64,000 nt of DNA from Nitrospirota bacterium (GCA_963737155.1 CAVTRN010000001.1:1504001-1568000); one strand, 5' to 3'. Counted from the stretch's first letter, positions 9,887 through 63,457 are shown. Notes: generated by a model from the sequence alone, not told the origin. Numbers and translations: made by a program.

Positions 9887-9890
9887 GATG

Positions 9891-9927: not shown

Positions 9928-9936
9928 TCTCATTCT

Positions 9937-17056: not shown

Positions 17057-17197
17057 TGACGAGAGTGAATATTGCAACAGGGCGATTGATGTTGCAAGTC
17101 TCGAAGCGATAGCCTTTAAATACTTTCTGCGTAAATAACCATGCGAATATTATCCAGATATCGGGGTATTAATCTTTTAAGTTGCCAGGAGGTACTA

Positions 17198-38747: not shown

Positions 38748-39491
38748 GTGACGATGAATCGACCAGAGAGCAAAATGTTTCCCAATGACGTAGCGCGCAA
38801 GCTCAAGAGCTACGTGTACAGACTAATTGACCCTCGAAAGGGTGAGACATTCTATATTGGGAAGGGCAAGGGCAACCGCTTATTTTCGCATATCCAAGCC
38901 GAGCAGAAATTGGTAGGCGACGATCTCGAAAATAAAATAATGCGCATCCGGGAAATACTCAATGCGGGATTAGAGGTCATTCACGTTATACATCGTCACG
39001 GAATGGATAACAAGACCGCCTTCGAAGTTGAATCCGCGCTCATCGGTGCGTATCCGGGGCTCACCAATATCACTGATGGGGCGGGTGGTAATGACTATGG
39101 GGCGATGCACGCGAAGGAGATCATCAGCTTTTATTATAGCAAGCCGGCAATATTCAAACACAAGGCGTTGTTGATTAACGTCAACAGAAGCGCCACCGAG
39201 ACATTGCTGTACGAAGCAACCCGTTACGCCTGGAAGATTAAAAAGGCTACGGCGGAGCAGGCTGAAGTCGTTCTCTCCACCTTAAAGGGTGAGATCGTCG
39301 GAGCCTTCATTGCTCACCGCTGGTTAGAAGCGACAATAAAGAACTTTCCAGGGCGCGCCACAAGACCCGGACGATTCAGATTCGAGGGGAAAGAGGCCCC
39401 TGAGAACATAAAAAAGCTGTACGTGGACAAGCGAGTGCCTGACGAGTACCGCAAGCCTGGGGCTGCGAATCCGATCAAGTATACTTGGTAG
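38748..39491 (+). CDS. LEM-3-like GIY-YIG nuclease
   Basis: YVYRLIDPR..FYIGKGKGNR; AFEVESALI; LTN. Confidence 0.85.
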   Translation: MTMNRPESKMFPNDVARKLKSYVYRLIDPRKGETFYIGKGKGNRLFSHIQAEQKLVGDDLENKIMRIREILNAGLEVIHVIHRHGMDNKTAFEVESALIGAYPGLTNITDGAGGNDYGAMHAKEIISFYYSKPAIFKHKALLINVNRSATETLLYEATRYAWKIKKATAEQAEVVLSTLKGEIVGAFIAHRWLEATIKNFPGRATRPGRFRFEGKEAPENIKKLYVDKRVPDEYRKPGAANPIKYTW

Positions 39492-41096: not shown

Positions 41097-42656
41097 CTAA
41101 GTTTCACATTTAAAATAGATATCACGTGGCAGGCTCTCCAGTGCCTGACATTCCCCCGCAAGGTAGAGGATTGAGGCATTTTGATGTATATATAGTGGAG
41201 ACAAAAAGCTTCGCTCACTAGTCCATCTGGTCAAAGAACGCCCTTTTTTTGCTCCACGATCTGAAATTGAAAACAACTGCTGATATTGGCGAGGTGCGAC
41301 TCCTGTATAAGCAAAGAAGACAACCTTACCTTCCTCCTCTTTACCATATAATGATTCTAACGTGATTTCCTCACGGTAGAGACCGCGCGCTCGGCTTTTG
41401 GGATATGGCTCCAAGTAAACGACTCTTCGAATGCCGGCAGCAATAATATGCTTTGCACAATTGTGGCAAGGGAAGGTCGTGACATACATCGAATGACCGT
41501 CTACAGCGACGCCACTACGCGCTGCGTCGATCAATGCAGTCATTTCTGCGTGCACAGGACGGCTGAATTCGCCAATATCGAGGAATTGTGTTCCTTTGAG
41601 TTCCTTCAATAGACTGTCAGCAAGGTCTCTCGTGGGTTCTATAGCGACCGCCTCTTGCAACCACTTTTTTTGAATAATTTTCTCGATCAATTCAGTCAAA
41701 ACGCTGATCTTAATTTCAGCGGCGCGATTTATGCCCTGCTGAAGAAGATTCTGGTCTCGCAAATCGGGGGAGTTCTGATCCCAGTAAAAACCACCACCGC
41801 GCGGGACTTCATTCATTCCAACTGCTATGATATTTGTGTTCCTAGTTTTGTAGTCGTCGCGAGTGAGACTGACGATAACAGCCCCCACCTGTCGGCTATC
41901 GTCTGAGGACCGGAGTGATACTGCATTTGCTTGGTACATTGTATATTCATCGGGTTTTGGCGTGTGGAAGGGATGGCCGAAGAGCAGATCCACAAATCTT
42001 CGAACTTCATATTCCCCCTTATCAATTCCCAGGTTGGCAAAAAAATCTGCTTAAGGGTAGGTATCGCGAACATTCTGCCCGAAATCATCATCTTGTTTTT
42101 CGTCGATTGAGGTTAGTCAGATGCTTTGGCTTCAAAGCGATCCTCCTTGCCAGCTTGGTACGCTTTTAGTGCCATACGCCGCTGAAGCTCTTCTTTACGC
42201 TGGACGCGAGCCGCATGCCCTGCGATAAGAAGAAAGGAAGCCCCATACACGTGGCGTAGCAGATCGACCTCGTCGGGATGTTTCAGCTGGTGCAGAATAT
42301 ACGCATGCGCCGGTGCGGGCTTATCAGGCTTCCTGAAATTTTACCCCTTTCAGTTCGAATTTCTGCTATACCTGCTAGTGCTAAGGCATCGCCCCTGTGA
42401 AGCCGCTTTCTAAATGCATTGCCCATATTCTGCAGATGCATTATCCGTTCGCCTTCGCCTATTCCCGTTTGATTGACCCAGCCGGTAAAATGAAGTAATA
42501 GGTGAGAGAGCCGAATTTCCACGGCCTGATACCCGAAGATCAACAGCTCCTCCCTGAGCTCACGTGACAATTCATTCAACCGCGTACCTGCGGCGCCGCC
42601 GAGCGCAAAAAAAGTTCGGGTTTATGATTTGATAAAGATAAATTAACGGAGCTCAT
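41097..42656 (-). pseudogene. Anti-phage dCTP deaminase-like gene (P-loop-kinase-like plus deaminase), disrupted
   Basis: ATG 42656 overlaps the upstream stop; PELF..GGAAGT, QLKHPDEV, FGQNVRDTYP, VHAE, TTFPCHNCAKH, YLEPYPKS; three -1 frameshifts (~42610, ~42328, ~42115) and an in-frame TAA (~42052). Confidence 0.88.
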
Positions 42657-43003
42657 ATTTCGTTCCTCCCATGAATCCATTTAATGCGTCCGTTCCGAAT
42701 AAAATAATGACATCGTAGTTTGGAATCCCGATAATCGATACTCGGAGAGATGGTAAGAGAATCTTGTATATTTATTGACCAATATGGCCACCGGTTTTTG
42801 TCGGTGTTCAGCATGATACGGTGCCCATTTTGGCACGGACAGTCAAAGGCAATCCATTTCGGGTTTGAAAGCGCTCCAACTAAGATTGCGCCATTACGTG
42901 GCAACCGCAGCGGAATTTCGTCAGCTGACTCTATCACCCCGACAATTCGCCACCCATGGATGGGAAGCCATTGCCACCATGAAATCTTTAAGACGTTGGC
43001 CAT
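42653..43003 (-). CDS. DUF6527-family protein
   Basis: FDCPCxxG, TISPSI, CHYFIRNGRIKW. Confidence 0.85.
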   Translation of the reverse strand: MANVLKISWWQWLPIHGWRIVGVIESADEIPLRLPRNGAILVGALSNPKWIAFDCPCQNGHRIMLNTDKNRWPYWSINIQDSLTISPSIDYRDSKLRCHYFIRNGRIKWIHGRNEI

Positions 43004-44376
43004 GTTTGCTCCAAAAACGGCTGTGTCATGCCGATTCCCAGCTTACCCGTAGAAGGATGACAATAATGACCTATCCGAGGTTGCGCAATATTGGTCGAAA
43101 TTTCACGTTCGTGACAGCGCATCAACACTTCGCTCGGACGTGGCTCAGGCCCATAACCGATCAAGCGTTCCAACAACTCGCTTACCGCCGTAGCGCTTAC
43201 GAGCGTTGTAAACGTTACAACAGCCGGCTCTGTTTGCGCCAGTGCAGGTGCGTAACCCTCACCTTCTCGGCGCACTCGTTCATCCGGAGTGAGCAGTTCT
43301 GCGCCTGCGCGGGCGAAATCGATCCGGTCACGGCAGATAAGACAGGCATGTCCAGGAGAGAGAATCGTGACGCGGCCGTCGATACCCGTCAATTGACCAC
43401 TTTCATCGCTGCTTAAAAGTACGCCGCAATCAATTATGGGCGTTAGTAGATAGGTTGCAAGGCGAGATAGCACCAAACGACCCGCATTGTCATCAGTGCA
43501 GCCAAAGACCACATCACACCCAATCAGACTGCGTGCAGCTGATTCTAACGTGACCATTGATTGTACTGTTTCACAACGGAGGTTCGGAGCAATCCGCATG
43601 AGATGTCGATTCAGTATCTGCACTTTTGGTTTTCCGATGTCCGATATAGTTGAGCCATACACTCGCGTTAGATTGCTTTCGGAGAGATCGTCAGGATCCA
43701 CAAGGGTGAGATTCCTGACTCCTAGACGAAGAAGTTGCTCGGCAACAGCTGAACCTGTGCCGCCACACCCGACAATCCCGATAGCAAAATCGCCGAGTGT
43801 TTGTTGGACGGCGGCTCCAAAAGCTCGTACATTCCTGTCGAAAATGGGGGATAGCTGAGGCAGTGAGGAATCATACGCTCGGACTAGTCGCCACCGATTT
43901 CCGACTTGCCATAATCGTTCAATTTGCAATGCGTCGCAACGTTCACGCTGCAAATATCCCGTAAAAAACAAATCGGAAGAATGCAACGAAAAAATTAGTG
44001 TCCCATAATATGGGCTGCCTGAGCGGAGACGAAAGAGGTCAGCGATTTCTCTATCCACAATGTGATCATGTTCGCTGGGTCGCGGCGTTGCGTCCTGACC
44101 AGGGTGCGTATGAACCCAAATGCAGGCGGCACCAAGAGTCTCAGCCTCAGCTAACGCATGTACATAACCTTCTGATCGAATCGTTAGCCCATACTGTTCC
44201 CTCCGGCTATAGGCTTCTTCTCCCACCCATCGCATGCAGCGCGCAAGGAGCCTAATATCGCCGTTTGGGGCCTCGGCAACACCTGCCAACATTACGCCTG
44301 CTGTTTCCTTCGGAAGGCTCGTAATCGATAGAATATCTTCTGCTATATCTTGAGGAATTACGACAGATACCGTCAT
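42988..44376 (-). CDS. JAB peptidase-E1 (ThiF) fusion, BubCD-like
   Basis: JAB E...HTHP...SEHD; E1 GCGGTG, D...SNLTR, CTD, CLIC. Confidence 0.9.
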   Translation of the reverse strand: MTVSVVIPQDIAEDILSITSLPKETAGVMLAGVAEAPNGDIRLLARCMRWVGEEAYSRREQYGLTIRSEGYVHALAEAETLGAACIWVHTHPGQDATPRPSEHDHIVDREIADLFRLRSGSPYYGTLIFSLHSSDLFFTGYLQRERCDALQIERLWQVGNRWRLVRAYDSSLPQLSPIFDRNVRAFGAAVQQTLGDFAIGIVGCGGTGSAVAEQLLRLGVRNLTLVDPDDLSESNLTRVYGSTISDIGKPKVQILNRHLMRIAPNLRCETVQSMVTLESAARSLIGCDVVFGCTDDNAGRLVLSRLATYLLTPIIDCGVLLSSDESGQLTGIDGRVTILSPGHACLICRDRIDFARAGAELLTPDERVRREGEGYAPALAQTEPAVVTFTTLVSATAVSELLERLIGYGPEPRPSEVLMRCHEREISTNIAQPRIGHYCHPSTGKLGIGMTQPFLEQTWPTS

Positions 44377-44773
44377 TTGGCTGACCCCTGAACAGATTTT
44401 TCAAGATCTTTGCGCAGTAGAGCAATAAAGCTTTCAAGACCGTCAACGCCCGATCGCCACTGTCCAGCTGGAAGATGACGAGACCATCGCTGCCAGCTGC
44501 GGCCTAAATAATGCTCGATCACTTCCGTCGCCTGGATAGGCCGACCATCTGCCCTACGAACAGGAGGATCAAACCACCACATGTCTGGGGGCACATCAGG
44601 GTATCCGGGCTTAAGTCGAAGTAAAAGATCCGATTTATCGCGATCGAAACCCGCAGGTAGTTGATAATCTTTAAAAACTATACACGTCATATTCGCCTCA
44701 GACATGAGGGTATGACTACCATTGCCGACACGATCCGTCAGATACTTTGTGTCATCGGGGGTAATAATGTCAT
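44373..44773 (-). CDS. Prokaryotic E2-like protein (BubB-like); N-terminus shifted by a -1 in a C5 run
   Basis: LKPGYPDVPPDMWW, WQRWSRH; adding one C at 44757-44761 gives MTLLPPDDTKYL; otherwise the ORF starts at 44705. Confidence 0.85.
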
Positions 44774-44788
44774 GATTTCCATTTGACT

Positions 44789-45169
44789 TTATGCTCCTGG
44801 ATTGATTTGCGTCGGCGCTGTGAAAAAACGAAGCCCATTCCGTATCTCTACTATATCCTGGTCGCCTATTTTCCGATCAGTGCCCCCGGGCACTACTTCG
44901 AAGAGATCGCGGTCATGTCCTACAGGCGGCGCAGGCAGTGCGCGCAGTTGCAATCCAGTCATTTGTGTTGCCTCGACTTTATAAGACTTACGGTCAATCT
45001 GAATTTCGAATTGGGTCTCATGGTGGTGATGATCCTCTGCCTCCTTAATTTCCTGGAGTGCCTCATCGATCTCATGCTCCGCCGTATCTTCGGCGGCTCT
45101 TGCGACCTTTAAGTCTGCTTCCGCCTTTTTAAGATGTTCCTCTGCCTGCTCAATTATTTTATCTTCCAT
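44789..45169 (-). CDS. Ubiquitin-like (multiubiquitin-domain) protein with N-terminal coiled coil, BubA-like
   Basis: SD AAGGAG; acidic coiled coil, His4, FEIQID...MTGLQLR...FFTAPTQINPG-A. Confidence 0.85.
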   Translation of the reverse strand: MEDKIIEQAEEHLKKAEADLKVARAAEDTAEHEIDEALQEIKEAEDHHHHETQFEIQIDRKSYKVEATQMTGLQLRALPAPPVGHDRDLFEVVPGGTDRKIGDQDIVEIRNGLRFFTAPTQINPGA

Positions 45170-45296
45170 TTCATACTCCTTATTAAATTGCAATTTTATT
45201 TTGTGGTTTGATAGTTTAAACGTAAAATCGATAATAATGCAAACAGTAAGTAATCACTATTCACGAACACGATAAAACGTAACCATTGAACGAATC

Positions 45297-45404
45297 TCAG
45301 CTCTCATTCAGCACGATCAAGGCCATCTTCATGTTGGCTATCAATTTCGTGTCCGCCTCCGGAAATAATTTGCCAAGTCAGGTGATGCAAAGTGAATTGT
45401 TCAT
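45297..45404 (-). pseudogene. Small leader gene of the Ubl operon with internal TGA
   Basis: SD AGGAGG; MNNSLCIT*LGKLFPEADTKLIANMKM... Confidence 0.35.
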
Positions 45405-45458
45405 TTTTTTATTACCTCCTAAATTATAGTTTCGGTCAGTTTTATTCGACCATGATTT

Positions 45459-45530
45459 AGTATCGCAGATACTGCTAAGTTTGTCAAGCAATTAATTTAT
45501 ATCAAGCATTTACTTATTTTGCTTGATAAA
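45459..45530. promoter_or_regulatory. Divergent promoter and candidate HTH operator
   Basis: Minus-strand TTGACA(45482-87)-17nt-GATACT with TG extension; palindrome TATCAAGCA-N11-TGCTTGATA (45500-45528) and an extra TCAAGCA half-site over the -35. Confidence 0.65.
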
Positions 45531-45591
45531 TTGAGCATAGTAGGTTAAAATTTTCCACAAGAAGAAATTGAATGTCCAGAGAGGAGCCATT

Positions 45592-45969
45592 ATGAAAGTG
45601 GAAGAAAAAGAGCGTACTACAATGACTCTCGGCGGATATCTATACAATCAACGACAGCGAAAGAAAATGACGCTCCGAGAGGTTGAGGAGGCTACAGAAC
45701 GTGCTGTCTCCAATGCATACTTAAGTCAATTGGAAAACAACAAGATAGTGAAACCATCGCCGAATATACTTTTCAGTCTTTCTTCAGTTTACGGTATCCC
45801 TTATGCGACTCTTATGGAAAAAGCTGGATATATTTCGGATATGACTGACCGCCAGACGGGTAGACACGGGCGCGTTGCCACTTTTGCAGATGAGAAACTC
45901 ACTCAAGAGGAGGAGGAGATCCTCTTAGAATACCTCGCTTTTTTAAGAAATCGTAGAGATAAAAAGTGA
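45592..45969 (+). CDS. XRE HTH repressor, CapH-like
   Basis: MTLREVE...VSNAYLSQLEN; divergent from the Ubl operon. Confidence 0.88.
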   Translation: MKVEEKERTTMTLGGYLYNQRQRKKMTLREVEEATERAVSNAYLSQLENNKIVKPSPNILFSLSSVYGIPYATLMEKAGYISDMTDRQTGRHGRVATFADEKLTQEEEEILLEYLAFLRNRRDKK

Positions 45970-46883
45970 TAAAACGAGACGACTCTTATTTACCACCTGA
46001 CAGGCTCACCGCCGTCAAGAAAGAAGCCAATCGCGCATTAAGAAATGCGGATGCTTATGGTGTGTTTCCCACGCCTATAGAACAAATTTTTGAGATGGCA
46101 AAAGTCGACCTGGCTCCAGAAGACGCTTTCCATACTGGCCTTGTTCGTAGATTTAGAAATAAATTCGGCGATACTCTCAGACGTGCATTATCAAAAGTTA
46201 GTGGAATATTTGACGTCGCAGGACGCATAATCTACGTCGATCAGACCCTCCATGCGGTCAAACAAACCTTTCTCAAATTGCACGAAATCGCGCATTCCTT
46301 TATGCCATGGCAGCGCAACCTGTATTCAGCAATAGAAGATTGTAAAAAAACAATAGAATCAGAACAAGCTGATGCTTTTGATCGGGAGGCGAATGTCTTT
46401 GCTAGCGAAGTATTATTTCAAGGCAATCATTTTATGGAAGAAGCAGCAGACTGTACTTTTGGAATATTGACACCTGTTAATCTCAGCAAAAAATATGGCG
46501 CTTCGATTTATGCAGCAGTCCGCCGATATGTACGAACAAATCCCCGAGCCTGCGCCGTTCTTGTTATTAATAGTCCTATTTTAGCAGAAGTCGATGGATT
46601 CATAGCTACTCTTCGAAGGGTAGAAATGTCGGAAACTTTTTTACTACAATTTGGCAACATTGCGTTCGCGGAACAATTTACGCCTGATGATCAGATAGGC
46701 GCTATGATCCCGATAGAAAAACGAAGAATGACAAGACCACGTATTATTCTTCTTGAAGATATTAATGGAGCAACTCATGAATGTGTTGCAGAAGCATTCA
46801 CTCAGACATATCAGATTTTTATCTTAATTTGTCCCAAATTGAGTTTAACTCGTAAATCAATAGTCGTGCCGCCTTTCAAATAA
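45966..46883 (+). CDS. ImmA/IrrE-family metallopeptidase, CapP-like
   Basis: HEIAH; EANVFASEVL; overlaps the HTH stop. Confidence 0.88.
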   Translation: MIKRDDSYLPPDRLTAVKKEANRALRNADAYGVFPTPIEQIFEMAKVDLAPEDAFHTGLVRRFRNKFGDTLRRALSKVSGIFDVAGRIIYVDQTLHAVKQTFLKLHEIAHSFMPWQRNLYSAIEDCKKTIESEQADAFDREANVFASEVLFQGNHFMEEAADCTFGILTPVNLSKKYGASIYAAVRRYVRTNPRACAVLVINSPILAEVDGFIATLRRVEMSETFLLQFGNIAFAEQFTPDDQIGAMIPIEKRRMTRPRIILLEDINGATHECVAEAFTQTYQIFILICPKLSLTRKSIVVPPFK

Positions 46884-47491: not shown

Positions 47492-48259
47492 TCAACCATC
47501 TATACCGGCATAATAATTGTAAAACTGCTTAGCTGTTCGTCCGCTTTTACAAGCTCTTAACAGCGAGAACATTCTAGCGGCTTCATGTAGCTTGCTTCTA
47601 TCCCCCCTGTAATTTGGGAAATAACTGTCGATGATTCTCAGGTAGCCTTCCATGTCTGCTTGATAGAACGATAACCAAAGCCCAAACCTATCTGACAACG
47701 ATATCTTTTCTTCAACAGAATCTGTATAATGCAATTCTCCATCAACAATACTTGTCTCTATGTTGTCTTTCATGTGTTCAGGTACTAGATGCCTACGATT
47801 AGAAGTTGCATATAGCAAAACATTGTTTGGTGGCTGCTCGATGGATCCTTCAAGCACGGTCTTCAGGGCAATATATGAGTTCTCATTTTCATCAAAGGAA
47901 AGATCATCGCAGTAAATAATAAATCTTTGCGGAAGTTCTCTTATGTCGTCAACTATGTAAGGTAAATTATACAAATCATTCTTCGATACTTCAATCAAAC
48001 GTAATCCATTTAATTTATATTCGTTCAGTATTGCCTTAATTAGTGATGATTTTCCTGTACCTCTCGCTCCCCACAATAATGCATTGTTGGCCGGCTTGCA
48101 GGAAAGAAATCGCTTTGTATTATTTACCAATTCTTCTTTCTGGTTTTCAATTCCAATCAAGGCAGCTAGAGTAATGGGGTCTATGGCCTTTACAGGACGA
48201 AGCTTACCTTGTTGTTGTCTCCATACAGCTGCATTTATTTGAGACCAGTCTATATCCAT
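47492..48259 (-). CDS. DUF815-family AAA+ ATPase (intact, AT-rich copy)
   Basis: LLWGARGTGKSS, DDLSF, YATSNRRHL, EEKISLSDRFGL, SGRTA. Confidence 0.92.
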   Translation of the reverse strand: MDIDWSQINAAVWRQQQGKLRPVKAIDPITLAALIGIENQKEELVNNTKRFLSCKPANNALLWGARGTGKSSLIKAILNEYKLNGLRLIEVSKNDLYNLPYIVDDIRELPQRFIIYCDDLSFDENENSYIALKTVLEGSIEQPPNNVLLYATSNRRHLVPEHMKDNIETSIVDGELHYTDSVEEKISLSDRFGLWLSFYQADMEGYLRIIDSYFPNYRGDRSKLHEAARMFSLLRACKSGRTAKQFYNYYAGIDG

Positions 48260-48519
48260 AAAAAAATTCCCTCCCACGAAGAGCAAATCATTGTTGATCC
48301 ATGGTCAGTAGCAAGCAATCTAGGATCTGTTTAGCATCGGATTAAAGTTTTGGACATTTGTCATTCATTAGCCCCTTTTCGGGAAAGCTTGATGATTATA
48401 ACGATCTGGCTCTTGCGCTTAATAAGGGTGTTTAAGGCCACCTTACTCTTCCGGAAGATAAAATCAACATGCCAAGAATAATTTCCTTAAAGAGGAAAGA
48501 GTAGTCAAATCGACTGCGC

Positions 48520-49049: not shown

Positions 49050-49970
49050 TTACGGCTTCTGTGCAATAGTTAGAGCCAAGGATGCCTCCCTCTGAAATCC
49101 TTTCGGTAAGCCGTTCATCTGAATGCCTGTGTAATCGCTGCTCAATAATTCGATAGCCCCATGAAATTCCTTCACCCTAAGTTTTTTGCGGAGTTCCCTA
49201 TTAGATTCAACGACCTTCTGATAGTAATCAACCAAAGTTCGACCCAAGTTGTTCGCGGTCACGAGATAAAGCATATGATCGCCCGTAGAGCCGAAATACG
49301 CGTCTATTTCCCAAATTCGTTCCCCGGCTGGTTGGAAGAGGCCAGGCTGCGGCCAGCAAAGGCCTCCGTGGAATATAAGTAAGTAGTTGTTTGTTCCGGG
49401 TTCGTTGATGCACTTGACACGAATAGTTTGCTTGCAATCTTTGCCCGTCTCGTAAATCTTTAGGCTGTCGCCATTCTTTGGACTGATGATAGTCGCCCCG
49501 AGGGTCTCCTGGGATCGGATAAAGGCGGCATTCTGGGAGCGAATCTTCATCGCAAGATCATGCGGGAAGAGAGCAACCTCGACGCCGCGATGCTGAAGTT
49601 TCCACAACCCCTTACCTGTCACGCCTTGATTGGGGTCCAGGATCCCCACGAAAACTTTCCTGATTTCGTTCTGCAGGATCAATTCGGTACAACACTCCAA
49701 TCCTCTCGTTCGGACCTCCGGTGTGCATGGTTCAAGTGTGGTGTATAGTGTCGCTTTCGGCAGCTGAGTCCTATCCTTGACGCCTTTAAGGGCAACGTGC
49801 TCTGCGTGGTCATCGTCGCCTTCTATCCCTGTTCCTCGACGACCGCGTCCAATCACTGTGTCGCCGATAGCAATAACGGCGCCGACTTTTGGGATGCTTT
49901 CCTTGCTCGGGCTGCATTTGTCTGCCCAGTCTATCGCCTCATTCATCAATTTGATGTCAACATTCTCCAT
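49050..49970 (-). CDS. Cytidine-deaminase-fold (RibD-N-like) protein with extra C-terminal domain
   Basis: PKVGAVI, HAE, YTTLEPC-x9-C, DPN; no RibD reductase domain. Confidence 0.8.
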   Translation of the reverse strand: MENVDIKLMNEAIDWADKCSPSKESIPKVGAVIAIGDTVIGRGRRGTGIEGDDDHAEHVALKGVKDRTQLPKATLYTTLEPCTPEVRTRGLECCTELILQNEIRKVFVGILDPNQGVTGKGLWKLQHRGVEVALFPHDLAMKIRSQNAAFIRSQETLGATIISPKNGDSLKIYETGKDCKQTIRVKCINEPGTNNYLLIFHGGLCWPQPGLFQPAGERIWEIDAYFGSTGDHMLYLVTANNLGRTLVDYYQKVVESNRELRKKLRVKEFHGAIELLSSDYTGIQMNGLPKGFQREASLALTIAQKP

Positions 49971-50357: not shown

Positions 50358-53276
50358 TTATTCTGCCTTATCCGAGGCACTTTTATTTTCCTTGATACCT
50401 TCCGGTTCAGGCTCATAAACATGAGTAGAGAAGCTAGTAAAATCAATTGGCTGTTCTCGCACCCACGGAATAATGTATGTTCCTACAATTTTATGCAATA
50501 CTCTATCTGTTACGCCTAGTTTTTTACAAAGGTGACCCCAGAGTACGATTTTGCGTGCCATACTAATGCTGGATAGCGACATTATCATAAGGTAAAAACT
50601 TAGTAGGAAGTACATAATTATTGGTAACTCAGAATGATTCTTTGTTCTAAGGTATAATTGTGTTTTCACCATCCATAACGTTATTAGGATAACCAATAGT
50701 GTTGGTATCATTCTAAATAAGAATCGTAACCAATTTCGGCCTGATGCTGACATCTTTCTTGGTAGACTATGCAAGAGGGTTTCGCAAAATACGATTGGGC
50801 GTAAGATAATTAATCGAGAAACACTTTCACTTATAATTGTTCTGAATAGACGATTTGCAATGGATATTTCTTTTGTTTTCTGATTAATTTCTTTATTATC
50901 CCTAATTCCGACAAGTAGTTCAGATAGAAAATCAATTGCTACAGGAAGCAAAAGGATGTCCTCGATACTCAAATATGTGGCCCTCAAGATTGCTTGAGCC
51001 TTTTCAGAGGTTGCATTTTGAATCCTATCTGCGATAACAGAAGCAACAAGATATTCCATGAATGATTTATGTCCAAATCGGAATGTACCAGGAGCAGCCG
51101 GGTCATCTGCTAAGAGGCCGCACGCCCGAACATCTGTTTTGACATGTTCGATACCAAATTCGTTATCTTGTAAACGGATGTGTAATGGTTTTGTGGTTTC
51201 CCCTGATGTTGCGGGTGAATCAGTCGAGACTGATAGTGGAATGGAATTTATTAAAGCGCTTATAGTTTCATTAAGCTGCGTTGCAGTAATCTGATTAGGA
51301 AGTCGTTTTGATGCCATGCAAGCTGCAATACCTGTCATAAAATACTCTCGTTCCAGTGTGGTAAGTGCCATAAACTCTGGTGAGCCAAACTCCTTCAAGC
51401 CTTGTCGTCGATAGCTGTGCCTTATAAATAAATCCATAACGAAAGCAGAAGTAAGTTCGTCAACTTTTTCAAAAAGACGTTCCTTTTCCCAAAGTACAGC
51501 CACTATATGCAATAGAGAAGGTCTTGATACAAGTTCTCTAAAACGAGAATTATTTTCGACTAGAGTATGAATTTGGTAAATTATTGTTGGCTTATAACTT
51601 CTTAAAGCCTCCTTAACTTGCTGAGAATTAAATGGCGCTAGCCGTAACGCTTCACAATATGGACTTTCCCCTACAGGCTTACTAATTCCAAGTGCTGCTA
51701 TCATTTCTTCTTCATCAAGGAAAAAGTTTGGTCGGCCTGTGATTAGTATTTTTGCATTTGGATAAGCAAATTGCCAAAGTGTTCTGAAGTGTTTGAGTCG
51801 CATCTCGAGGTCACCTACTAAAGCCATTTCATCGAATCCCTCAAAAACCAGAACAAGTCTTCCAGCAATAAGCAAACGTAATAGAGCTTGAGGGTTTATG
51901 CCATATTGTGCCGTCCAAGCACCTAGAAATTGGAGTGGGGTCAAATTTCGCGGACTAGTCCCTCTAAGTTCAATTAATATGGGAATACGATTGGACGAGT
52001 TTTGCCACTTTTTTATTAGGTGATAAGCCCACATAACAGTTGCCGTACTTTTCCCTTGTCCATACTCACCCAATAGCGCAATTTGCCGTTGACCGGTTGC
52101 ATCTAGCCAGGTATTTAGATATTCTTCTGCGTTGCGGTTATGCTTTTCGCCATTCTGAATAAAAAAAATAGAAGATGGAACATACACATCACAAAGGGTT
52201 AAGTCTGAGTCAGGTAAATGGTTAATTGTAACTCTTCGCCTAATATCGTTGAAGTAATCCTTGAAATCAATCAAACAATCAAGAAGACTATCTTCAGTTT
52301 CATAACGAATGAATGTGTTATTCCAATTAACAATCGGCTTATTGGTATGCGTTTTTGTTGCGACTATTATCTCGCCAACATTTTTATTATCATGTGAAGC
52401 TATTCGATCAACATACGATAGAAATTCCCTTAGCTTGCTTTCATTTACTTCTTCTAGAAGTGGATTTAAGAAAACCAAATCACCAGTATTAACGTTTGTT
52501 CCCACCCAACAGTTTGAACTATCATGCCAACCGTTATCAAGATCGAACGCATAAGAAGACGACGACAGGCGAACTAACTCCTTCGCTTGGTCTTTCCAAG
52601 CCAATGTATCTCTTACCGATTCTAATTGGGGAATGAACTGTTTTGGATTTATCTCTGTGTATACTTGTAAGGGAGATTCTCGCCTCAAAAGACGTTTGAG
52701 TTCATTCATCCCTTCCATAAAAAAATTTAGGAATTCAGAACGTTGTTCATGTCGATGCTGCTCAATGCTCTTAAGTCCATGCCAGTTCTTTTGTAGTTGG
52801 TGAAGTGTCCAAATAAGAATAATATAAAGTGTAATAATAAAAGCGTAATCAATCCATCGCGTATTTGATTGAAATACGGTCTTGTCAATAAACACACAGT
52901 AGAAAGCATTAGGAATCGACCACGGCATGAGGCCAGTTAGTAGCGATGCAACTAAAAATAGGCTCGCAAATATTGATGTGAAAAATAATAATAAAGAGAG
53001 TTCCTCGCGTAAATGTCGGCTCTGATAGATCCAGACCGACAGGCTACTTTTTATAAAGAGCAATGTGATAATTATCATTATGATACAATATGGGAGTGAA
53101 AAGTTATAATCTAATAAGTCTTTGTTAGATTGAGTGGTTTGTTGAAATATCCCACTCTTGTATTCAATTACTAGAAGGATAATTCCAACTAATATCGAGG
53201 TGGCAATGTTCACAAATATGCTTTTTAATAAGTTAGGAGTGGGATGATTTCCCTGTTCGTTCTTTGTTTTTGACAT
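50358..53276 (-). CDS. NACHT-family STAND NTPase with N- and C-terminal TMs (NLR-like, putative defence)
   Basis: Walker A GEYGQGKST, Walker B LVFEGFDEM, LITGR, RPSLL, FRFGHKSFMEY. Confidence 0.88.
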   Translation of the reverse strand: MSKTKNEQGNHPTPNLLKSIFVNIATSILVGIILLVIEYKSGIFQQTTQSNKDLLDYNFSLPYCIIMIIITLLFIKSSLSVWIYQSRHLREELSLLLFFTSIFASLFLVASLLTGLMPWSIPNAFYCVFIDKTVFQSNTRWIDYAFIITLYIILIWTLHQLQKNWHGLKSIEQHRHEQRSEFLNFFMEGMNELKRLLRRESPLQVYTEINPKQFIPQLESVRDTLAWKDQAKELVRLSSSSYAFDLDNGWHDSSNCWVGTNVNTGDLVFLNPLLEEVNESKLREFLSYVDRIASHDNKNVGEIIVATKTHTNKPIVNWNNTFIRYETEDSLLDCLIDFKDYFNDIRRRVTINHLPDSDLTLCDVYVPSSIFFIQNGEKHNRNAEEYLNTWLDATGQRQIALLGEYGQGKSTATVMWAYHLIKKWQNSSNRIPILIELRGTSPRNLTPLQFLGAWTAQYGINPQALLRLLIAGRLVLVFEGFDEMALVGDLEMRLKHFRTLWQFAYPNAKILITGRPNFFLDEEEMIAALGISKPVGESPYCEALRLAPFNSQQVKEALRSYKPTIIYQIHTLVENNSRFRELVSRPSLLHIVAVLWEKERLFEKVDELTSAFVMDLFIRHSYRRQGLKEFGSPEFMALTTLEREYFMTGIAACMASKRLPNQITATQLNETISALINSIPLSVSTDSPATSGETTKPLHIRLQDNEFGIEHVKTDVRACGLLADDPAAPGTFRFGHKSFMEYLVASVIADRIQNATSEKAQAILRATYLSIEDILLLPVAIDFLSELLVGIRDNKEINQKTKEISIANRLFRTIISESVSRLIILRPIVFCETLLHSLPRKMSASGRNWLRFLFRMIPTLLVILITLWMVKTQLYLRTKNHSELPIIMYFLLSFYLMIMSLSSISMARKIVLWGHLCKKLGVTDRVLHKIVGTYIIPWVREQPIDFTSFSTHVYEPEPEGIKENKSASDKAE

Positions 53277-56997: not shown

Positions 56998-58521
56998 GAC
57001 GAGGTCAAGCTTTTAGTTGAAATTATCTGAGTGGCCCGTTCCCTTCGGCTAAAGTATTTTTATCGGTTCAACGGTGTAAATCATCGCTGTTTATAAAATC
57101 GGATTCGTAGGATCGCCATATGTGAGTTTTCTGAGGCCGAGCCATACCTAACCATCCCCCTTTACGCAGCCTCTTTGACTGTTAGGTCATTTAATTCTTC
57201 CGCTTCGATCCGTTTCATCACGTCCGCGATGAAGGCGTGGCCCTTGATCTTTCTGAATCCTTGTTCAGCATATAAGAGGACAGAAGCGAGCCAGCGCTGC
57301 ATCATCTTGCTGTCGCGGTAGCGCTTTATATTGCCTTCTGCTTTTCTCACCGTGGAAAACATGCTCTCGATAGGATTGGTAGAATGCAACGTCTTCCTCA
57401 AGAGAGCGGGGACCTTCAATCGATGAAGGGTGAGAATGTCTTCTATCGCTTCCATGAGCGAATCAGCCGCCGACTCATTAATGCCCCGAAGCCATTTCTC
57501 CATGTCCAGAAGCATCTGACGAGCGTCCGCGTAATTATTCTGCTCCAGGGCTGTCCGGAACCTCCAGTGTGCGCCTTTCCGGTATTTCTTCGGCAAATGA
57601 TGCTGTATATTCCGGTCCTTGTGGATCGTGCACCGCTGATGGATGAGTTTCTTACCGAAGCGATCCCGGAGTGCCTTGATTACGCCCTTGCCGCCATCGG
57701 TAACCCAGATGATTCGTCGTGAAAGTATCAGACCTCGCCGCTCTATATCAGAAAACAGCTCTTCACACAGTTCATGGTTCTCCGTCGCCCCCTGCCAGAA
57801 CCCCAATGTCTGCTTCTTTCCGGCAATATCAAGCCCCAGCGCCACGATGAATGCCTCTCCGCCGCGGTGAACAGTGTCTAAAAAGACCGCAAAGGGAACG
57901 AATGACGTGAGTGACCGTTCCTTAAACTCCTGAAGCTGTTTTGCTGTTGCCGCGACGATATGGCTCGATACCGTGCTGGCGGACACTCCAAATGCTCGTG
58001 CCGTATCTACAACTGTCTCCGCATACTTCCGGCATGATATGCCCCGAAGCACCTTTCCAAGCAATTCTTCTGCGAAGACTTCCGGTTTTTTCATCTTCTG
58101 ATAGCTCTGCAGTACAATCTCACCCGCCGGACCTCGAAGCCGAGGGTGGGTCACCGGGATCTTCTGATCTCCGATATAGACGGAACCGCCCTGGCTAGCC
58201 CACTTCCGCAGATCGGGACTGTTAGGCTGGTAGTCGGGGCCGGCAATCTCCTCCCGCTCGATGTACATGATCGTCTCTGCCATCATTCTGCCCATTTCCT
58301 TCATGCATTCATCAAAACCCTGTTTCCCTTTTGCGAAGACACAATACATCTGTTCGATGATCTCCCGCCTTCCGTATGCCTCTTCAATTCCTCGTATTGC
58401 CTTTTTTCTCTTCCTTGTGGTATCCTTCATTGAGTGGCTCCTTTCTTTTTTCTCTCTCTACCGTGGATTATGCCACGGGGGAGCCACTCTTTTCAATTTC
58501 AACTAAAAACAGTATAACCTG
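56998..58521 (-). mobile_element. IS256-family element, copy 2 (inverted)
   Basis: Same translated ORFs and ends as copy 1; 9-bp TSD GATTCCGAA (56989-56997, 58522-58530). Confidence 0.95.
57162..58430 (-). CDS. IS256-family transposase
   Basis: Same protein as 2453..3721. Confidence 0.95.
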   Translation of the reverse strand: MKDTTRKRKKAIRGIEEAYGRREIIEQMYCVFAKGKQGFDECMKEMGRMMAETIMYIEREEIAGPDYQPNSPDLRKWASQGGSVYIGDQKIPVTHPRLRGPAGEIVLQSYQKMKKPEVFAEELLGKVLRGISCRKYAETVVDTARAFGVSASTVSSHIVAATAKQLQEFKERSLTSFVPFAVFLDTVHRGGEAFIVALGLDIAGKKQTLGFWQGATENHELCEELFSDIERRGLILSRRIIWVTDGGKGVIKALRDRFGKKLIHQRCTIHKDRNIQHHLPKKYRKGAHWRFRTALEQNNYADARQMLLDMEKWLRGINESAADSLMEAIEDILTLHRLKVPALLRKTLHSTNPIESMFSTVRKAEGNIKRYRDSKMMQRWLASVLLYAEQGFRKIKGHAFIADVMKRIEAEELNDLTVKEAA

Positions 58522-59152: not shown

Positions 59153-59504
59153 TGAACGGGATGCCGCATATCTCCTGGACATGCTTCAGGCAGCAGAGAA
59201 GGTCCGCCGTTTTGTTAACGGGATAAAACAGGAGGAGTTTGCTGAAAACGGGGTGCTACGTGATGCCATCGAACGCAATATCGAGATCATCGGAGAGGCC
59301 GCTCGCAAAGTGACGGAGGCGTTTAAAAAGCATCATCCTGAAATTCCTTGGCGCAAGATAATTGCCCAGCGCAACGTGCTAGTTCACGAGTACGATAAGA
59401 TTGGTGTGGATGAAATGTGGAGTGTGGTGACGTTTCATGTACCAAACCTGATAGAGAATCTTGCGCCGTTGATACCTCCCACGCCGCCGGAGGTCGAATC
59501 CTAA
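59142..59504 (+). CDS. HEPN/DUF86 RNase (HepT-like toxin)
   Basis: EIIGEAA, IPW, RNVLVHEY (RX4HXY). Confidence 0.9.
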   Translation: MRPNERDAAYLLDMLQAAEKVRRFVNGIKQEEFAENGVLRDAIERNIEIIGEAARKVTEAFKKHHPEIPWRKIIAQRNVLVHEYDKIGVDEMWSVVTFHVPNLIENLAPLIPPTPPEVES

Positions 59505-60814
59505 TGCCTATCAATATTCTCAATCTAAACGCCTATGAGATCATAAATTTCAAAGAAACAGAGCATGATTATCATATATATGCGAGGACCAAGGTACCGT
59601 CAACCATATGCCCTCACTGCGGATCAAATAATGTCGTAGGGCATGGGTCCGATGACATCACTGTAAAAGATATGACGATACATGGCAAGCGAGTAGGCGT
59701 GTATATCGGCGTACGTAGGTATAAATGCCGGGGCTGCGGTAAAACCTTTACTGAAGCACTGCCTCATATAAATAGCAAAAGACTAATGACAGATCGACTT
59801 GTTCAATATGTCGGCGGCCAGGCACTTAGCCGTACTTTCACAAGCATAGCAGATGAGATTGGAGTCGCAGAAGGTACTATACGGAACATTTTTCGTGACT
59901 ATGTGAACGAACTTGAAAAAACAGTCCGATTCGAGATACCACAGTGGATGGGTATCGATGAGATTCATATTATTAAGAAACCCAGAGCTGTCATCAGCAA
60001 TATCGAGAACAACACAATCGTAAATATCTTACCTGATCGGAATAAAAAGACTGTCATCAAATATCTAAACGGTCTTGATGGTAAAGATCGTGTTCGATAT
60101 GTCGCAATGGATATGTGGAAGCCCTATCGAGATGCTGTCAATACAGTATTCCCAGACGCTACCATAGTCATAGACAAGTTTCATGTTGTCAGAATGGCAA
60201 ACGAGGCGGTTGAAAAAGTGCGTAAATCAATTCGGCAATCTCTCACGTCAGCCCAACGTCGAACACTCATGCACGATCGATTCGTCTTGTTGAAGAGACA
60301 AAAAGACTTGTCTGCAAAAGAAATACTTATACTAGCGACATGGTTCGCCAATTATCAGGATATTAAAGAGGTTTACGAGGTTAAAGAGCAATTCTTCAAT
60401 ATATGGGATGCAAAAGACAAAAACGAAGCGCTTGGCTTATATAACGGATGGCAGCAGAGCATACCTCAAAATCTTCTCGAAGCCTACCATCCATTAATTA
60501 CTGCAACAGAAAACTGGCAGGAGGAAATTTTTGCGTACTTTGATCATAAAATCACGAACGCTTATACCGAGTCTCTCAACAATTTAATAAGGGTCATGAA
60601 TCGATTGGGCCGTGGTTATTCCTTTGACGCCCTTAGAGCAAAAATTCTCTTCACAGAATCTATGCACAAGATTAAAAGATCTGCGTTTAAAAAATGGCCA
60701 GCAGATAACTTAATGTGTTTCCGGACGGAATCCACATTGGACAATCAGCCGGAAATTAATTACGGGGTGGATATATCCACACTAACAGAACTGATTGAGT
60801 CCGGAGCCTTTTGA
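59504..60814 (+). CDS. ISL3-family transposase
   Basis: TAATG overlap with the HEPN gene; CPHC..CRGC, GIDE, MDMW, DKFH, TNAYTESLN. Confidence 0.93.
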   Translation: MPINILNLNAYEIINFKETEHDYHIYARTKVPSTICPHCGSNNVVGHGSDDITVKDMTIHGKRVGVYIGVRRYKCRGCGKTFTEALPHINSKRLMTDRLVQYVGGQALSRTFTSIADEIGVAEGTIRNIFRDYVNELEKTVRFEIPQWMGIDEIHIIKKPRAVISNIENNTIVNILPDRNKKTVIKYLNGLDGKDRVRYVAMDMWKPYRDAVNTVFPDATIVIDKFHVVRMANEAVEKVRKSIRQSLTSAQRRTLMHDRFVLLKRQKDLSAKEILILATWFANYQDIKEVYEVKEQFFNIWDAKDKNEALGLYNGWQQSIPQNLLEAYHPLITATENWQEEIFAYFDHKITNAYTESLNNLIRVMNRLGRGYSFDALRAKILFTESMHKIKRSAFKKWPADNLMCFRTESTLDNQPEINYGVDISTLTELIESGAF

Positions 60815-60847: not shown

Positions 60848-62572
60848 TTATTTTACACTCCCCGCTACCCACTTAAGTAAATCCCTAGACCATCTAAAAT
60901 AATATTCTGGCCCCTTCTTCGACGGATGGCGCTTTGATTTCAGTTTAACGTTTTTTTCACTGAATTCCTTAATCATTTTCTTTAAGTGAATACAGTTTAC
61001 ATATTTTTGCATTAAATCTTTAGCATGTTGCACTAAAATATTAATGTCATCACTCGATACCAATACATAAGTACCTGGACCATTGGGCAAGTTCCTATGG
61101 TCGACTTCTACAAGACAGACATTTCTCCCTTTGTAATTAAACGTTGCACATCTATAAAGCCGCATATCCCAATTGCAGTTTTTATAGCTTTCCCTCTGCG
61201 TTAACCTCTTTGTTTGTTTTTTCCCACGCCGTTCGGGAACATCCCTTTCTGGAAACATTTCCCAGCTCTGAACACCTTCAGCATCACTAAGATAATTCAT
61301 TAACTCGTTAAAATTCTCTAAACAGAAATATGCCTTTTGCTCATCACTATTTTCGGTTTTCCCCCTGCTCCTCTTCTCCACATTGGCTTTCCGCGCAAGC
61401 GTTTCATTCTCGGCGTTCGGGTCTTCAATGACGCTCATGGGAACATCACCTAATACTTCTTCCGCGGTACGGGCATCACCCTCAGCAGCCTTTTCATTAT
61501 CCACCTCGGGGATGATAACATGAGCAATTTTTATTTTTTTTAGGTTAGAGTTTCGTTCTTCTTTAAGGGAACCAATGATAACGGGTTGCAACTGTGAGGA
61601 AGGCGGTTTGTTCGTGACGAGGTCAATTGTCTTATACGTCCGCGTAGGACGAAGGACTTCAGTTGCTTTGGGAGCCTTTTTCCTCGCACTTCGTTGTATT
61701 TCTAAGTTATCGAAACTGAAGGAGCTGTCTTCCTTCAATATCTCGAAAACAATTATCTTATTCTTTTGTCTCGTCGTATCATCGAATTCTAACCCCCTCA
61801 CTTCCATGTTAATAACTTGCTGAACAGGAAAGTCAAATTTAAGGGGAACAAATTCATTATTTTCTCCTGAAGATATCGCTTCTGAGTGGCGTTGGAGCAT
61901 ACCAGCATATACGGCATTCCACCTCTTCAACGAAAATTTGTTAGTGGCAAATCGAACAATATAAGGAGCATCATATTCGTTGGCGTTCGATTTCAAGTGA
62001 ATAGTTGCTTTATGAGTTTCTAAATCGACTTTAGCATACTCATATAAGCCCTCAAGTCTCCCGAAGAAAAGCTGTCGCCGCATGGCGGATGAGGTGAAGT
62101 AATACCTCGCACCGAGGACTGCACAGGGGAATATGAGCATGCTTTTCTCATCTTCAAAAATGACACAGGGTTGTCTCTTGCAATATTTTGAATAATCAAC
62201 GTGCTTTTCTCCCCGACTGAAGGAATGACTAAGATTATACTCGTCGTCTGTCAGCACATCAGATACCGAGCAGATCCGGTTTTTGTCTGTTGATGTAAAA
62301 GTAACCGGGAAAACTTCTCCAAGGGGTTTAATATCATCTACAAAATTTGTATCTTGATAATGGAGGCCTATAGCGAAATAATCATGTAAAAATTCCGGAA
62401 AGATATCCTCCGTTAAATACATATTGCTATTAATGTCTTTAAAAAGGACCTTGTAAAAGTTCTTACCTGCGACCGTTGAAATATCCATGATCCAAAGGAG
62501 TCTAAAGACTCGGTCTGGATGTTTTGTACTCATCTTAGGGAGCTTTGTAGATTTGATTGATCTCTCGATCAT
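60848..62572 (-). CDS. TnsE-like Tn7 target-selection protein (tentative)
   Basis: 574 aa; LIFPCAVLGARYYF.SS central motif; charged linker; C-terminal FNYKGRNVCLVEVD...TYVL resembling TnsE_C; adjacent to a Tn7-like end. Confidence 0.55.
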   Translation of the reverse strand: MIERSIKSTKLPKMSTKHPDRVFRLLWIMDISTVAGKNFYKVLFKDINSNMYLTEDIFPEFLHDYFAIGLHYQDTNFVDDIKPLGEVFPVTFTSTDKNRICSVSDVLTDDEYNLSHSFSRGEKHVDYSKYCKRQPCVIFEDEKSMLIFPCAVLGARYYFTSSAMRRQLFFGRLEGLYEYAKVDLETHKATIHLKSNANEYDAPYIVRFATNKFSLKRWNAVYAGMLQRHSEAISSGENNEFVPLKFDFPVQQVINMEVRGLEFDDTTRQKNKIIVFEILKEDSSFSFDNLEIQRSARKKAPKATEVLRPTRTYKTIDLVTNKPPSSQLQPVIIGSLKEERNSNLKKIKIAHVIIPEVDNEKAAEGDARTAEEVLGDVPMSVIEDPNAENETLARKANVEKRSRGKTENSDEQKAYFCLENFNELMNYLSDAEGVQSWEMFPERDVPERRGKKQTKRLTQRESYKNCNWDMRLYRCATFNYKGRNVCLVEVDHRNLPNGPGTYVLVSSDDINILVQHAKDLMQKYVNCIHLKKMIKEFSEKNVKLKSKRHPSKKGPEYYFRWSRDLLKWVAGSVK

Positions 62573-62724
62573 GCCGTATAGAAGAGCAAAGGATCTCCTA
62601 ATGGATGAAACAATACTTTATGTATTGCGCGGGACACCTTTGACTGGGCTAGATTAGAGAAAAATGGCGATAAGAGAGCGAGAATGCTTATTTTGGGGGG
62701 ATTAAGCGGACTTGTTTCACGGGT

Positions 62725-62800
62725 ACCACTATTTGTTGTGTCTTTTATTGAGCCAGTTGCAATATATTTTGTGTAGTTGCAATAACTAATAGCTATGACA
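62725..62800 (-). mobile_element. Tn7-like transposon terminus
   Basis: Minus strand begins TGTCATAGC where DUF815 homology stops; two TATTGCAACT direct repeats 20 bp apart (62755-64, 62775-84); visible GC step. Confidence 0.6.
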
Positions 62801-63294
62801 CCGCCGTCCATGATCGTTTTCATTTCCTTGTAATCGACCTGTCCCTCTTCGAAGGACAGATCGTCAATGAAGAGAATGAACCGGTAAGGAGTGCTCCGTT
62901 CAAGAAGATCATACATCTCCTGAATCGTGAGAATATCGTGCTTGTAGACCTGGATCATCCGGAGTGATGAGTTGTAAAAAACCGTAAGCAGGGACTTTAT
63001 AAGCGACGATTTGCCTGTACCGCGCTCACCCCAGAGCATAACGTTGTTTGCCTTGTTGCCGTCGATGAAATTCTTCGTATTGTGGATGACTGCCTTTTTG
63101 ATCGAATCGATGCCGATCAGGTCGCCTGTATCGATCTGGACCGGCCGCCTGACCGGGTTCATGGATTTCCGCTTTCCGTCCCAGAGAAAGGCCTTATAGC
63201 CGTCAAAATACGGTGTTTCCGGTCCGCTGTCCACGTAACGATCAAGCAGTTTGTCAAGTTTGGTTAGAATTTGCCCGATGTCGGCTTTGTCCAT
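62801..63294 (-). pseudogene. Native DUF815 AAA+ ATPase, 5' half only
   Basis: MLWGERGTGKSS, DDLSFE, ends at KTIMDGG; YATSNRRH half missing. Confidence 0.88.
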
Positions 63295-63457
63295 GATCTG
63301 CACTATACTCCTGTGTGTCCACGGGCGACTTTGTTGCACTGTAAATCCAAAGCACCGTTCACCCACGGTTTAATGTTTTAAAAAAGCTCCGGATACTAAG
63401 CCTCGATCAAAAAAAGAGGGATAACCGTTTTTAGCCTTCTTTAAGATACTTTTGTTC

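Follow-up and report, generated by a model that had tools for sequence, protein, structure and literature searches.

Does a nucleotide deaminase gene that lies at the end of a bacterial ubiquitination operon belong to it in more than position? The question is raised by a 64,000-nucleotide stretch of Nitrospirota bacterium DNA (GCA_963737155.1 CAVTRN010000001.1:1504001-1568000), which was analysed as a whole and is called the window below. At positions 41,097 to 46,883, a Bub-type operon with divergent, CapH/CapP-like regulators is followed by a gene of the dCTP deaminase family. An original prediction, made from the sequence alone, took the deaminase for a co-regulated effector or a conjugation target of the Bub pathway. 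It proposed a survey of gene neighbourhoods, and it held that a deaminase rarely adjacent to Bub operons elsewhere, or one with a promoter of its own, would speak against the idea. We ran this survey and observed that the pairing is a recurrent five-gene Bub subtype, in which the last gene is a kinase-deaminase tightly packed on the preceding gene. For intact relatives we favour a functional coupling of the Bub machinery and the co-expressed deaminase, to which we give a probability of about 0.55.

In the window, bubA, bubB, bubCD, bubE and the kinase-deaminase gene follow one another on the minus strand with overlaps or short gaps between them, as judged from open reading frame (ORF) calls, Pfam and PADLOC. 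The ATG of the kinase-deaminase (42656-42654) overlaps the TGA of bubE (42655-42653). A gene with a helix-turn-helix (HTH) domain and an M78 peptidase gene, both on the plus strand, diverge from this operon. Thus, the series named in the original prediction, namely a ubiquitin-like (Ubl) protein ending in G-A, an E2 with WSRH, a JAB-E1 fusion, a DUF6527 protein and a kinase-deaminase with an overlapping ATG, was found in place. By its predicted gene content, the locus can be assigned to the Type I Bub operons, in the subtype with Ubl and E2 as separate genes. A consensus scan of the window revealed no promoter-like site at the junction of bubE and the deaminase and no terminator-like site between the two genes.

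To see the pairing from the Bub side, we scanned genomes with the BubE alignment, taking one genome per species, which yielded 52 loci (all loci of this study carry L numbers). The deaminase gene lies downstream of bubE in 10 of them. It follows bubE directly in L026, L027, L029, L032 and L033 and comes after a gene for an SDH-type ClpP-like protease in L028, L034 and L068; in L052 it stands behind the SDH gene and a second E2 paralogue, and in the degraded locus L030 behind an insertion sequence (IS). The 10 records are labelled Geobacter, Smithella, Terriglobia, Planctomycetia, Pyrinomonadaceae, Janthinobacterium, Acidobacteriaceae and Stakelama, eight groups altogether. In the BubCD tree, the window falls into a seven-row clade with full support, and in every operon of this clade the deaminase comes right after bubE; the nearest BubCD, that of L087, is 86% identical to the window's. 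Over the whole tree, the deaminase label needs at least four changes.

The second Prok-E2_E paralogue of L052 (4.1e-31; 8253-8672) sits between the SDH gene and the deaminase (8665-10218) and overlaps the start of the latter by 8 nt, which makes it the only such case among about 50 Bub-deaminase loci. In 40 of the 52 genome loci, bubE is followed by the SDH-type ClpP-like serine protease gene (PF01972, about 300 aa), which often overlaps the bubE stop (for example L028:7348-8274, L031:7348-8277 and L052:7318-8253, besides 37 further loci of L026-L077); no other additional gene seems to be as common in this Bub subfamily. Neither the deaminase nor the SDH gene is present in six loci, one of which is a short contig.

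The same relation was then viewed from the deaminase side. A metagenome scan with the deaminase alignment gave 502 relatives, of which the best 80 were kept. Fifty-two of these 80 loci share 47% identity or more with the L027 deaminase; nine begin inside the gene, leaving 43 that can be evaluated. In 41 of the 43, bubE or the SDH gene lies directly upstream on the same strand, and in L143 the Bub operon lies directly downstream, so 42 of the 43 adjoin a Bub operon. The exception is L120, with a DDE transposase upstream; at the DNA level its deaminase does not differ from the one in L121, where a Bub operon is present. After dereplication, each of the 34 distinct evaluable deaminases has one or more contigs in which it is linked to Bub. 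Of the 28 loci that reach no more than 45% identity, just two, L131 and L146, adjoin a Bub operon.

When 61 full-length deaminases, all different, were placed in a tree, a branch with SH-aLRT 97 separated 40 sequences, 39 of them Bub-linked, from 21 others, of which one is Bub-linked. Copies from plasmids (51 records) and viruses (17 loci) all belong to the stand-alone deaminase group, at 38% identity or less, except for three short deaminase-domain fragments at 40-52%. Just downstream of the stand-alone deaminase of L128 and L129, on the opposite strand to it, we noticed a weak DUF6527-like ORF (L128:2691-3008 and L129:3344-3661, minus strand; E 3.3e-5, BubE profile), with no E1 or E2 near it in these two loci.

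The packing of the genes is equally regular. Across 42 non-redundant loci, the deaminase start overlaps the preceding gene in 10 and follows it by 1-100 nt in 26; in five more, taking the BubE located with a profile hidden Markov model as the preceding gene turns the gap into an overlap or one of no more than 46 nt. This brings loci with an overlap or a gap of no more than 100 nt to 41 of 42, and only the IS-disrupted L030 has a large gap. The linked operons include BubCD lineages that are just 29-36% identical to the window's, with the layout of Ubl, E2, E1 (about 480 aa) and DUF6527 kept. An alternative order occurs in L131:392-5937 and L143:1-3183, where a WYL regulator, an HNH protein and the deaminase precede bubA-bubB-bubCD-bubE, the deaminase thus being first and not last. 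In general, the surveys place the deaminase within the operon, as had been claimed: it recurs next to Bub operons elsewhere, and in the window no promoter-like site was seen at its junction with bubE.

The nature of the last gene is clearest in the intact orthologue from L027. The NCBIfam equivalog model NF041025, named "anti-phage dCTP deaminase", has its cut-off at 400 bits, and the L027 protein reaches 411.7 bits. This agrees with the family originally proposed. The window gene stays under the cut-off because it is broken: its C-terminal ORF reaches 239.7 bits, and the pieces recovered by a search of its own genome reach 272.9, 52.3 and 35.9 bits, with internal stops. No other gene of this genome attains the cut-off in the same search. 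The HAE and PCHNC zinc motifs, invariant in 29 rows, are retained in the window's C-terminal ORF. In an AlphaFold (AF2) model of the L027 deaminase (pLDDT 83.7, pTM 0.80), Foldseek relates the C-terminal domain to the dCMP/dCTP deaminases 7fh4 and 2w4l and the N-terminal domain to the adenylate-kinase-like structures 3h0k and 3lw7. The modelled protein is one of two domains, an N-terminal kinase-like P-loop domain and a C-terminal zinc deaminase of the CDA fold. The intact orthologue is predicted to deaminate dCTP on infection and to protect against phages.

The family, also named AvcD/DcdV, is a large one, in which 1598 representatives match at E 1e-30 or better. Since about nine of the best 150 representatives reach 47% identity to L027, the Bub-linked clade is a small offshoot. 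It is enriched in K322 and K476 and has short insertions at residues 266-275 and 310-312; these features are suggestive only, and we build no claim on them. A complex prediction for BubB and the deaminase, with alignments led by the L027 proteins, gave ipSAE values of 0.02 and 0.01 against a mark of 0.32, and, being without controls, it is evidence neither way.

The Bub proteins of the window carry the residues expected of their families. BubA consists of an N-terminal helical region and one beta-grasp domain (Multi_ubiq), and it ends in INPG with a one-residue tail (A). It is 48-77% identical to BubA of the nearest loci, and in the orthologues INPG is followed by 1-14 variable residues; the aligned C-termini predict that JAB cleavage would expose the terminal glycine. 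The E2 motif RWSRH, which contains the Ser-x-His site, is invariant in 29 of 29 rows of the BubB protein alignment, the window included. In BubCD, the ThiF domain matches at 7.5e-38 and Prok-JAB scores 20.2 bits, under its cut-off of 25. The best PDB match is the Citrobacter BubCD 9ea4 (E 1.8e-26, residues 23-411). An alignment of 72 BubCD rows has 46 columns with a conservation of at least 97%, and the protein keeps every one of them, among them the JAB residues E24, H89, H91 and D104 and the crossover-loop tyrosine Y375. BubE retains, in a 33-row alignment, the invariant S88 and H99 of the Ser/His dyad and the zinc cysteines C55, C57 and C98. The genes bubA, bubCD and bubE, as well as both regulators, still look intact.

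We also considered that the separate Ubl and E2 genes might be a broken BubAB fusion. This was rejected: the orthologues are separate genes in different frames, and BubB has its own conserved start. The separate-gene layout is likewise found in at least 31 rows of Table S1 of the Bub preprint, in the portion available, including Bradyrhizobium sp. Ghvi, a label shared with our locus L066.

The window copy is not a working system, since bubB and the deaminase gene appear to be pseudogenes. The true ATG of bubB is at 44773, and a few codons on there is a one-base deletion in a run of C (44757-44761, C5), seen in a DNA alignment against seven orthologues. The deletion breaks the frame, and therefore the annotated ORF (44705-44373, 110 aa) opens at an internal ATG and about the first 20 residues of the domain are gone (PF14462 matches from profile position 21). 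A three-frame view and the protein alignment, in which the window row has no N-terminus, agree with this. In the deaminase gene, comparison with the intact L027 orthologue reveals matches in three different frames (residues 18-115, 110-182 and 183-520). The frameshifts lie in a T7 run at 42607-42613, near 42325-42333 and near 42112-42118, and a base substitution has produced an in-frame TAA at 42051-42053, where L027 has Lys. In the own-genome profile search the gene likewise falls into three pieces with internal stops. The original prediction had implied that the deaminase gene is broken, and this stands; it had missed the deletion in bubB.

It is worth considering whether these lesions could be an artefact of assembly, the frameshifts being sequencing errors and both genes being intact in the living cell. 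Two of the four indels (T7 and C5) do lie in homopolymer runs. Moreover, contigs from two soil-metagenome runs cover 41323-41926, 43465-43754 and 44566-45278, and leave outside the stretch 41927-43464, which holds the deaminase lesions; a third run added nothing. However, one lesion is a base substitution to TAA, one indel lies outside homopolymer runs, and all five lesions are clustered within about 2.7 kb. General assembly error is unlikely because ORFs of 1483, 1322, 972 and 923 aa elsewhere in the window are unbroken. The C-run lesion of bubB is real, since the read-derived contig X1 from a soil-metagenome run (44566-44794) is identical to the window there, the C5 site included, though this run may be the assembly's own sample. 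We therefore regard an artefact as highly improbable.

The seven-row BubCD clade has six members besides the window, and the deaminase remnants share 62-69% identity with all of them but L105 (52%). Because five intact members of the clade are 60-70% identical to one another, the inactivation looks recent. On the evidence of the reading frames, bubB and the deaminase of the window are judged to be pseudogenes and the system in this genome to be dead or dying. Decay was also observed in other Bub-deaminase loci (L030, L123, L138 and L101), with split deaminase or bubCD matches in different frames and an IS in L030; part of it may be error in low-coverage metagenome contigs.

The divergent pair of regulators corresponds to what had been predicted, with a capP match for the peptidase (1.5e-14) and a weak capH match for the HTH gene (2.9e-4), which fits the generic HTH_VI profile at 4e-8. 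The peptidase has its HEIAH motif at residues 106-110, and its GTG start overlaps the HTH stop by 4 nt. In the 374-nt region between the pair and the operon, a consensus scan found promoter-like sites in both directions (minus strand, 45487..45459; plus strand, 45523-45551), and a repeat search found a 19-nt inverted repeat (45473-45491 / 45519-45537) that spans both -35 boxes and is a candidate operator. The sites and the repeat are pattern matches only, and their function is inferred.

Upstream sequence of 700 nt or more was present in 29 non-redundant Bub-deaminase loci, and we examined 95 ORFs in it. A regulator was recognisable in 18 of the 29: an HTH+M78 pair in four, HTH alone in two, a LexA-like S24 protein in two, a WYL (CapW-like) protein in four, a ribbon-helix-helix protein in four and XRE-Panacea in two. 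None was recognised in the other 11. Classes linked to DNA damage account for 10 loci (four HTH+M78, two S24 and four WYL). The window pair is distant from the HTH+M78 pairs of the orthologous operons, the best match being at 27% identity. As the types differ between loci and the window pair is so far from the orthologous ones, the regulators are best understood as swapped modules, with the Bub-deaminase link staying in place.

A search for the origin of the operon in 61 genomes of the genus, family and phylum gave no close relative; the best BubCD match was at 37%, with no deaminase beside it. DUF6527 was found in 19 of 401 sampled genomes of the window's phylum, and none of the 18 other DUF6527 loci examined there has a deaminase within about 8 kb. 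The missing close relatives, the lack of a deaminase at the phylum's other DUF6527 loci and the variable region around the locus together indicate that the operon of the window was horizontally acquired. The coordinates of its parts are collected in Table 1.

Table 1. Parts of the Bub-deaminase locus, with positions counted from the first letter of the window.
Feature	Position	Strand	Evidence
capP-like, M78/IrrE-type metallopeptidase, 305 aa	45966..46883	+	Peptidase_M78 3.6e-6; PADLOC capP 1.5e-14; HEIAH
capH-like, XRE-type HTH repressor, 133 aa	45568..45969	+	HTH_3 1.1e-8; PADLOC HTH_VI 4e-8; capH 2.9e-4 (weak)
Divergent control region, 374 nt	45194..45567		Consensus scan and repeat search
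bubA, Ubl precursor, 134 aa	44789..45193	-	PF14452 2.1e-11
bubB, E2 with RWSRH, probable pseudogene	44373..44773	-	PF14462 3.6e-32
bubCD, JAB peptidase-E1 fusion, 462 aa, apparently intact	42988..44376	-	ThiF 7.5e-38
bubE, DUF6527 serine protease, 116 aa, apparently intact	42653..43003	-	PF20137 8.2e-19
Kinase-deaminase (anti-phage dCTP deaminase family), probable pseudogene	41097..42656	-	PADLOC PDLC02373 2.3e-80 and 2.5e-10

The window as a whole is a variable region. It carries transposases of the ISL3 and Mutator types next to RHS toxin genes, a PD-T4-3 gene and a NACHT NTPase, and the Bub locus is set in this IS-rich surrounding. The PD-T4-3 defence gene (38748-39491, plus strand; PADLOC 2e-103) encodes a LEM-3-like GIY-YIG domain, and 1.6 kb separate it from the deaminase pseudogene. 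The window has another zinc deaminase gene, unrelated to the first and of 306 aa (49050-49970, minus strand), which combines a RibD/TadA-like N-terminal domain with about 170 residues without an assigned family; it gave no PADLOC match and lies just downstream of the gene for the 972-aa NACHT NTPase (50358-53276), on the same strand. Two genes encode DUF815 AAA-type ATPases, one at 47492-48286 (minus strand) with the full profile (9.6e-100) and one at 62569-63366 (minus strand) with profile positions 3-138 only. Two 422-aa Mutator-family transposase ORFs with equal Pfam scores stand in opposite orientation (2453-3721, plus strand; 57162-58430, minus strand). There are also two ISL3 transposases (22873-24138, minus strand; 59417-60814, plus strand) and two large RHS-repeat toxin genes (5113-9564 and 17141-21109, plus strand).

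How the locus compares with described systems can be considered for each of its parts. The prototype of Type I Bub is the BubAB/BubCD/BubE operon of Citrobacter sp. RHBSTW-00271 (6E.1 / DUF6527 operon). The available portion of the Bub preprint (Ye, Gong, Chambers and Corbett, bioRxiv 10.1101/2024.11.21.623953) distinguishes Type I and Type II operons, gives their biological role as unknown and reports CapH and CapP with 168 of 544 operons. It places the catalytic Ser-x-His of the Citrobacter E2 at S333/H335 and describes conjugation of the Ubl to targets via oxyester intermediates for the Citrobacter and E. coli systems. The window shares with this type the Multi_ubiq Ubl with a conserved Gly and a tail, the Prok-E2_E protein with Ser-x-His, the JAB-E1 fusion with the crossover-loop Tyr, the DUF6527 protein with a Ser/His dyad and the association with a CapH/CapP-like pair. 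It differs in the fifth gene, the kinase-deaminase, which is joined to the operon, and in the frameshift of bubB. As for the CapH/CapP pair (Lau et al. 2022, as cited in the available portions of the Bub preprint and PMC13373217), the likeness consists of an adjacent HTH repressor and HExxH M78 metallopeptidase, divergent from the operon, and an inverted repeat over promoter-like sites. The difference lies in the weak capH match and in the distance from the pairs of orthologous operons. By analogy, DNA-damage-triggered cleavage of CapH by CapP is putative for the window pair.

The Bub-linked deaminases have the two-domain layout and the HAE and PCxxC motifs of the anti-phage dCTP deaminases (NF041025 / PDLC02373), and an intact orthologue exceeds the cut-off. 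They differ from these in being a small offshoot set in Bub operons instead of standing alone, with clade-specific residues and short insertions, and the window copy differs further in being a probable pseudogene. A broader parallel is offered by Type II CBASS (cyclic oligonucleotide-based anti-phage signalling systems), in which Cap2 and Cap3 (E1-E2 and JAB) control a cGAS-like enzyme. There, the operon encodes no Ubl, and what becomes conjugated is the C-terminus of the enzyme itself. Both systems place a ubiquitin-like transferase and a JAB peptidase in one operon with a nucleotide-handling immune enzyme, often under CapH/CapP or CapW; in ours the Ubl is separate, Bub chemistry is oxyester-based and the link to the deaminase is a proposal.

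We found no description of the Bub-deaminase pairing, which agrees with the original prediction, where it was taken to be undescribed; the published versions of the Bub work (NSMB 2026 and Structure 2025) and the papers that first described dCTP deaminases, with their supplements, lie outside this search and could mention it. The words "deaminase" and "kinase" are absent from the main text and the whole Table S1 of the Bub preprint, and "effector", "ClpP" and "SDH" from its main text. "Deaminase" is also absent from the available portions of a companion preprint on Bub Ubls and of a 2026 EMBO J paper on CapK/CapS (PMC13373217). Iyer et al. 2006 defined the "6e" operon type, in the portion available, without a deaminase. 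The literature searched contains no paper that joins DUF6527 with a deaminase, or the dCTP deaminase/AvcD with ubiquitin-like systems.

In the coupled system that we favour for intact relatives, a stress or DNA-damage signal would lift the repression of the operon. BubCD would then trim the tail of BubA and activate it, and BubB would pass BubA on. The co-expressed deaminase would turn dCTP/dCMP into deoxyuridine nucleotides and thereby starve phage DNA synthesis, and the Bub machinery would set or limit its activity, with conjugation by BubB/BubCD and removal by BubE/BubC. A relation that goes beyond shared transcription is suggested because one deaminase clade is tied almost exclusively to Bub across deep BubCD divergence and exchanges of regulators. 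The E2 paralogue of L052 that overlaps the deaminase start points in the same direction. A more specific form of the coupling is a tentative proposal, and we rate it as doubtful: BubCD/BubB would ligate BubA to the kinase-deaminase, or else to a partner restraining it, and so switch the destruction of dCTP on, and BubE together with the JAB domain would strip BubA to reset the system.

Several points weigh against the coupling. No experiment or computation here has shown a physical or enzymatic link between Bub and the deaminase. Most Bub operons do without a deaminase (it is missing from 42 of the 52 loci of the genome scan and from each of the 18 others examined in the window's phylum), and, as the loci were selected by the deaminase (metagenomes) or by a BubE peptide pattern (genomes), neither the 42 of 43 nor the 10 of 52 is a population frequency. 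As noted for the lesions, the read contigs miss those of the deaminase, and two of four indels are in homopolymer runs. According to the available portion of PMC13373217, no Bub operon had been shown to protect against phage as of 2026. Finally, the stand-alone relatives are single-gene defence systems (Tal et al. 2022, cited in the available portion of the review PMC13276650), and therefore the deaminase need not depend on Bub.

The last of these points leads to the alternative of co-regulated passengers, in which an autonomous, nucleotide-depleting deaminase uses a tightly repressed, damage-inducible Bub promoter to keep its toxicity off, and Bub acts in parallel without conjugation or binding. 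The stand-alone members do act alone, all plasmid and viral copies (if the short fragments are set aside) are of the stand-alone group, and the Bub operons that lack a deaminase fit this as well, as do the recognisable regulators in 18 of 29 loci, 10 of them of DNA-damage-linked classes. Yet a shared promoter alone leaves unexplained why a monophyletic clade should be tied so closely to operons whose BubCD is about 30% identical and whose regulators are of at least four types. Nor does it account for the second E2 at the deaminase start in L052, or for L131 and L143, where the deaminase has moved to the other side of the operon and is still attached. We consider such passengers unlikely. Alternatively, the system might serve a stress or DNA-damage response and not phage defence, with the deaminase reshaping the pyrimidine pool or editing nucleic acid for the cell and Ubl tagging serving the response. 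The authors of the Bub work state, in the available portions of 10.1101/2024.11.21.623953 and PMC13373217, that phage protection has not yet been observed and that the operons may mediate global stress responses, and the regulators found are of damage-responsive types. On the other hand, the orthologue passes the equivalog cut-off of a model for anti-phage dCTP deaminases, the variable region in which it was found also holds PD-T4-3, RHS toxins, a NACHT NTPase and IS elements, and the operon is sporadic and horizontally moved, like defence genes. A pure stress role thus seems improbable to us.

What the finding says about this one genome is modest, since the copy that it carries is a remnant decaying within a variable island. 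The Bub subtype with a built-in dCTP deaminase is, as far as gene content tells, a variant of the known Type I Bub operon, and the copy found here is probably inactive. Its meaning for the family is broader. The biochemistry of Bub pathways is well described, and their targets and biological role are open. Here, a recurrent Bub subtype carries a validated type of anti-phage effector, and a dedicated deaminase clade is found almost only there. The pairing gives a handle on the role of Bub, since its output can be measured, as dCTP/dUTP levels and phage plaques, and since it offers a candidate conjugation substrate. It also reveals a possible new mode of control for the large dCTP deaminase family. 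If the proposed conjugation switch is true, it would be the first known target and output of Bub pathways and a counterpart to the way in which Cap2/Cap3 of CBASS control cGAS-like enzymes.

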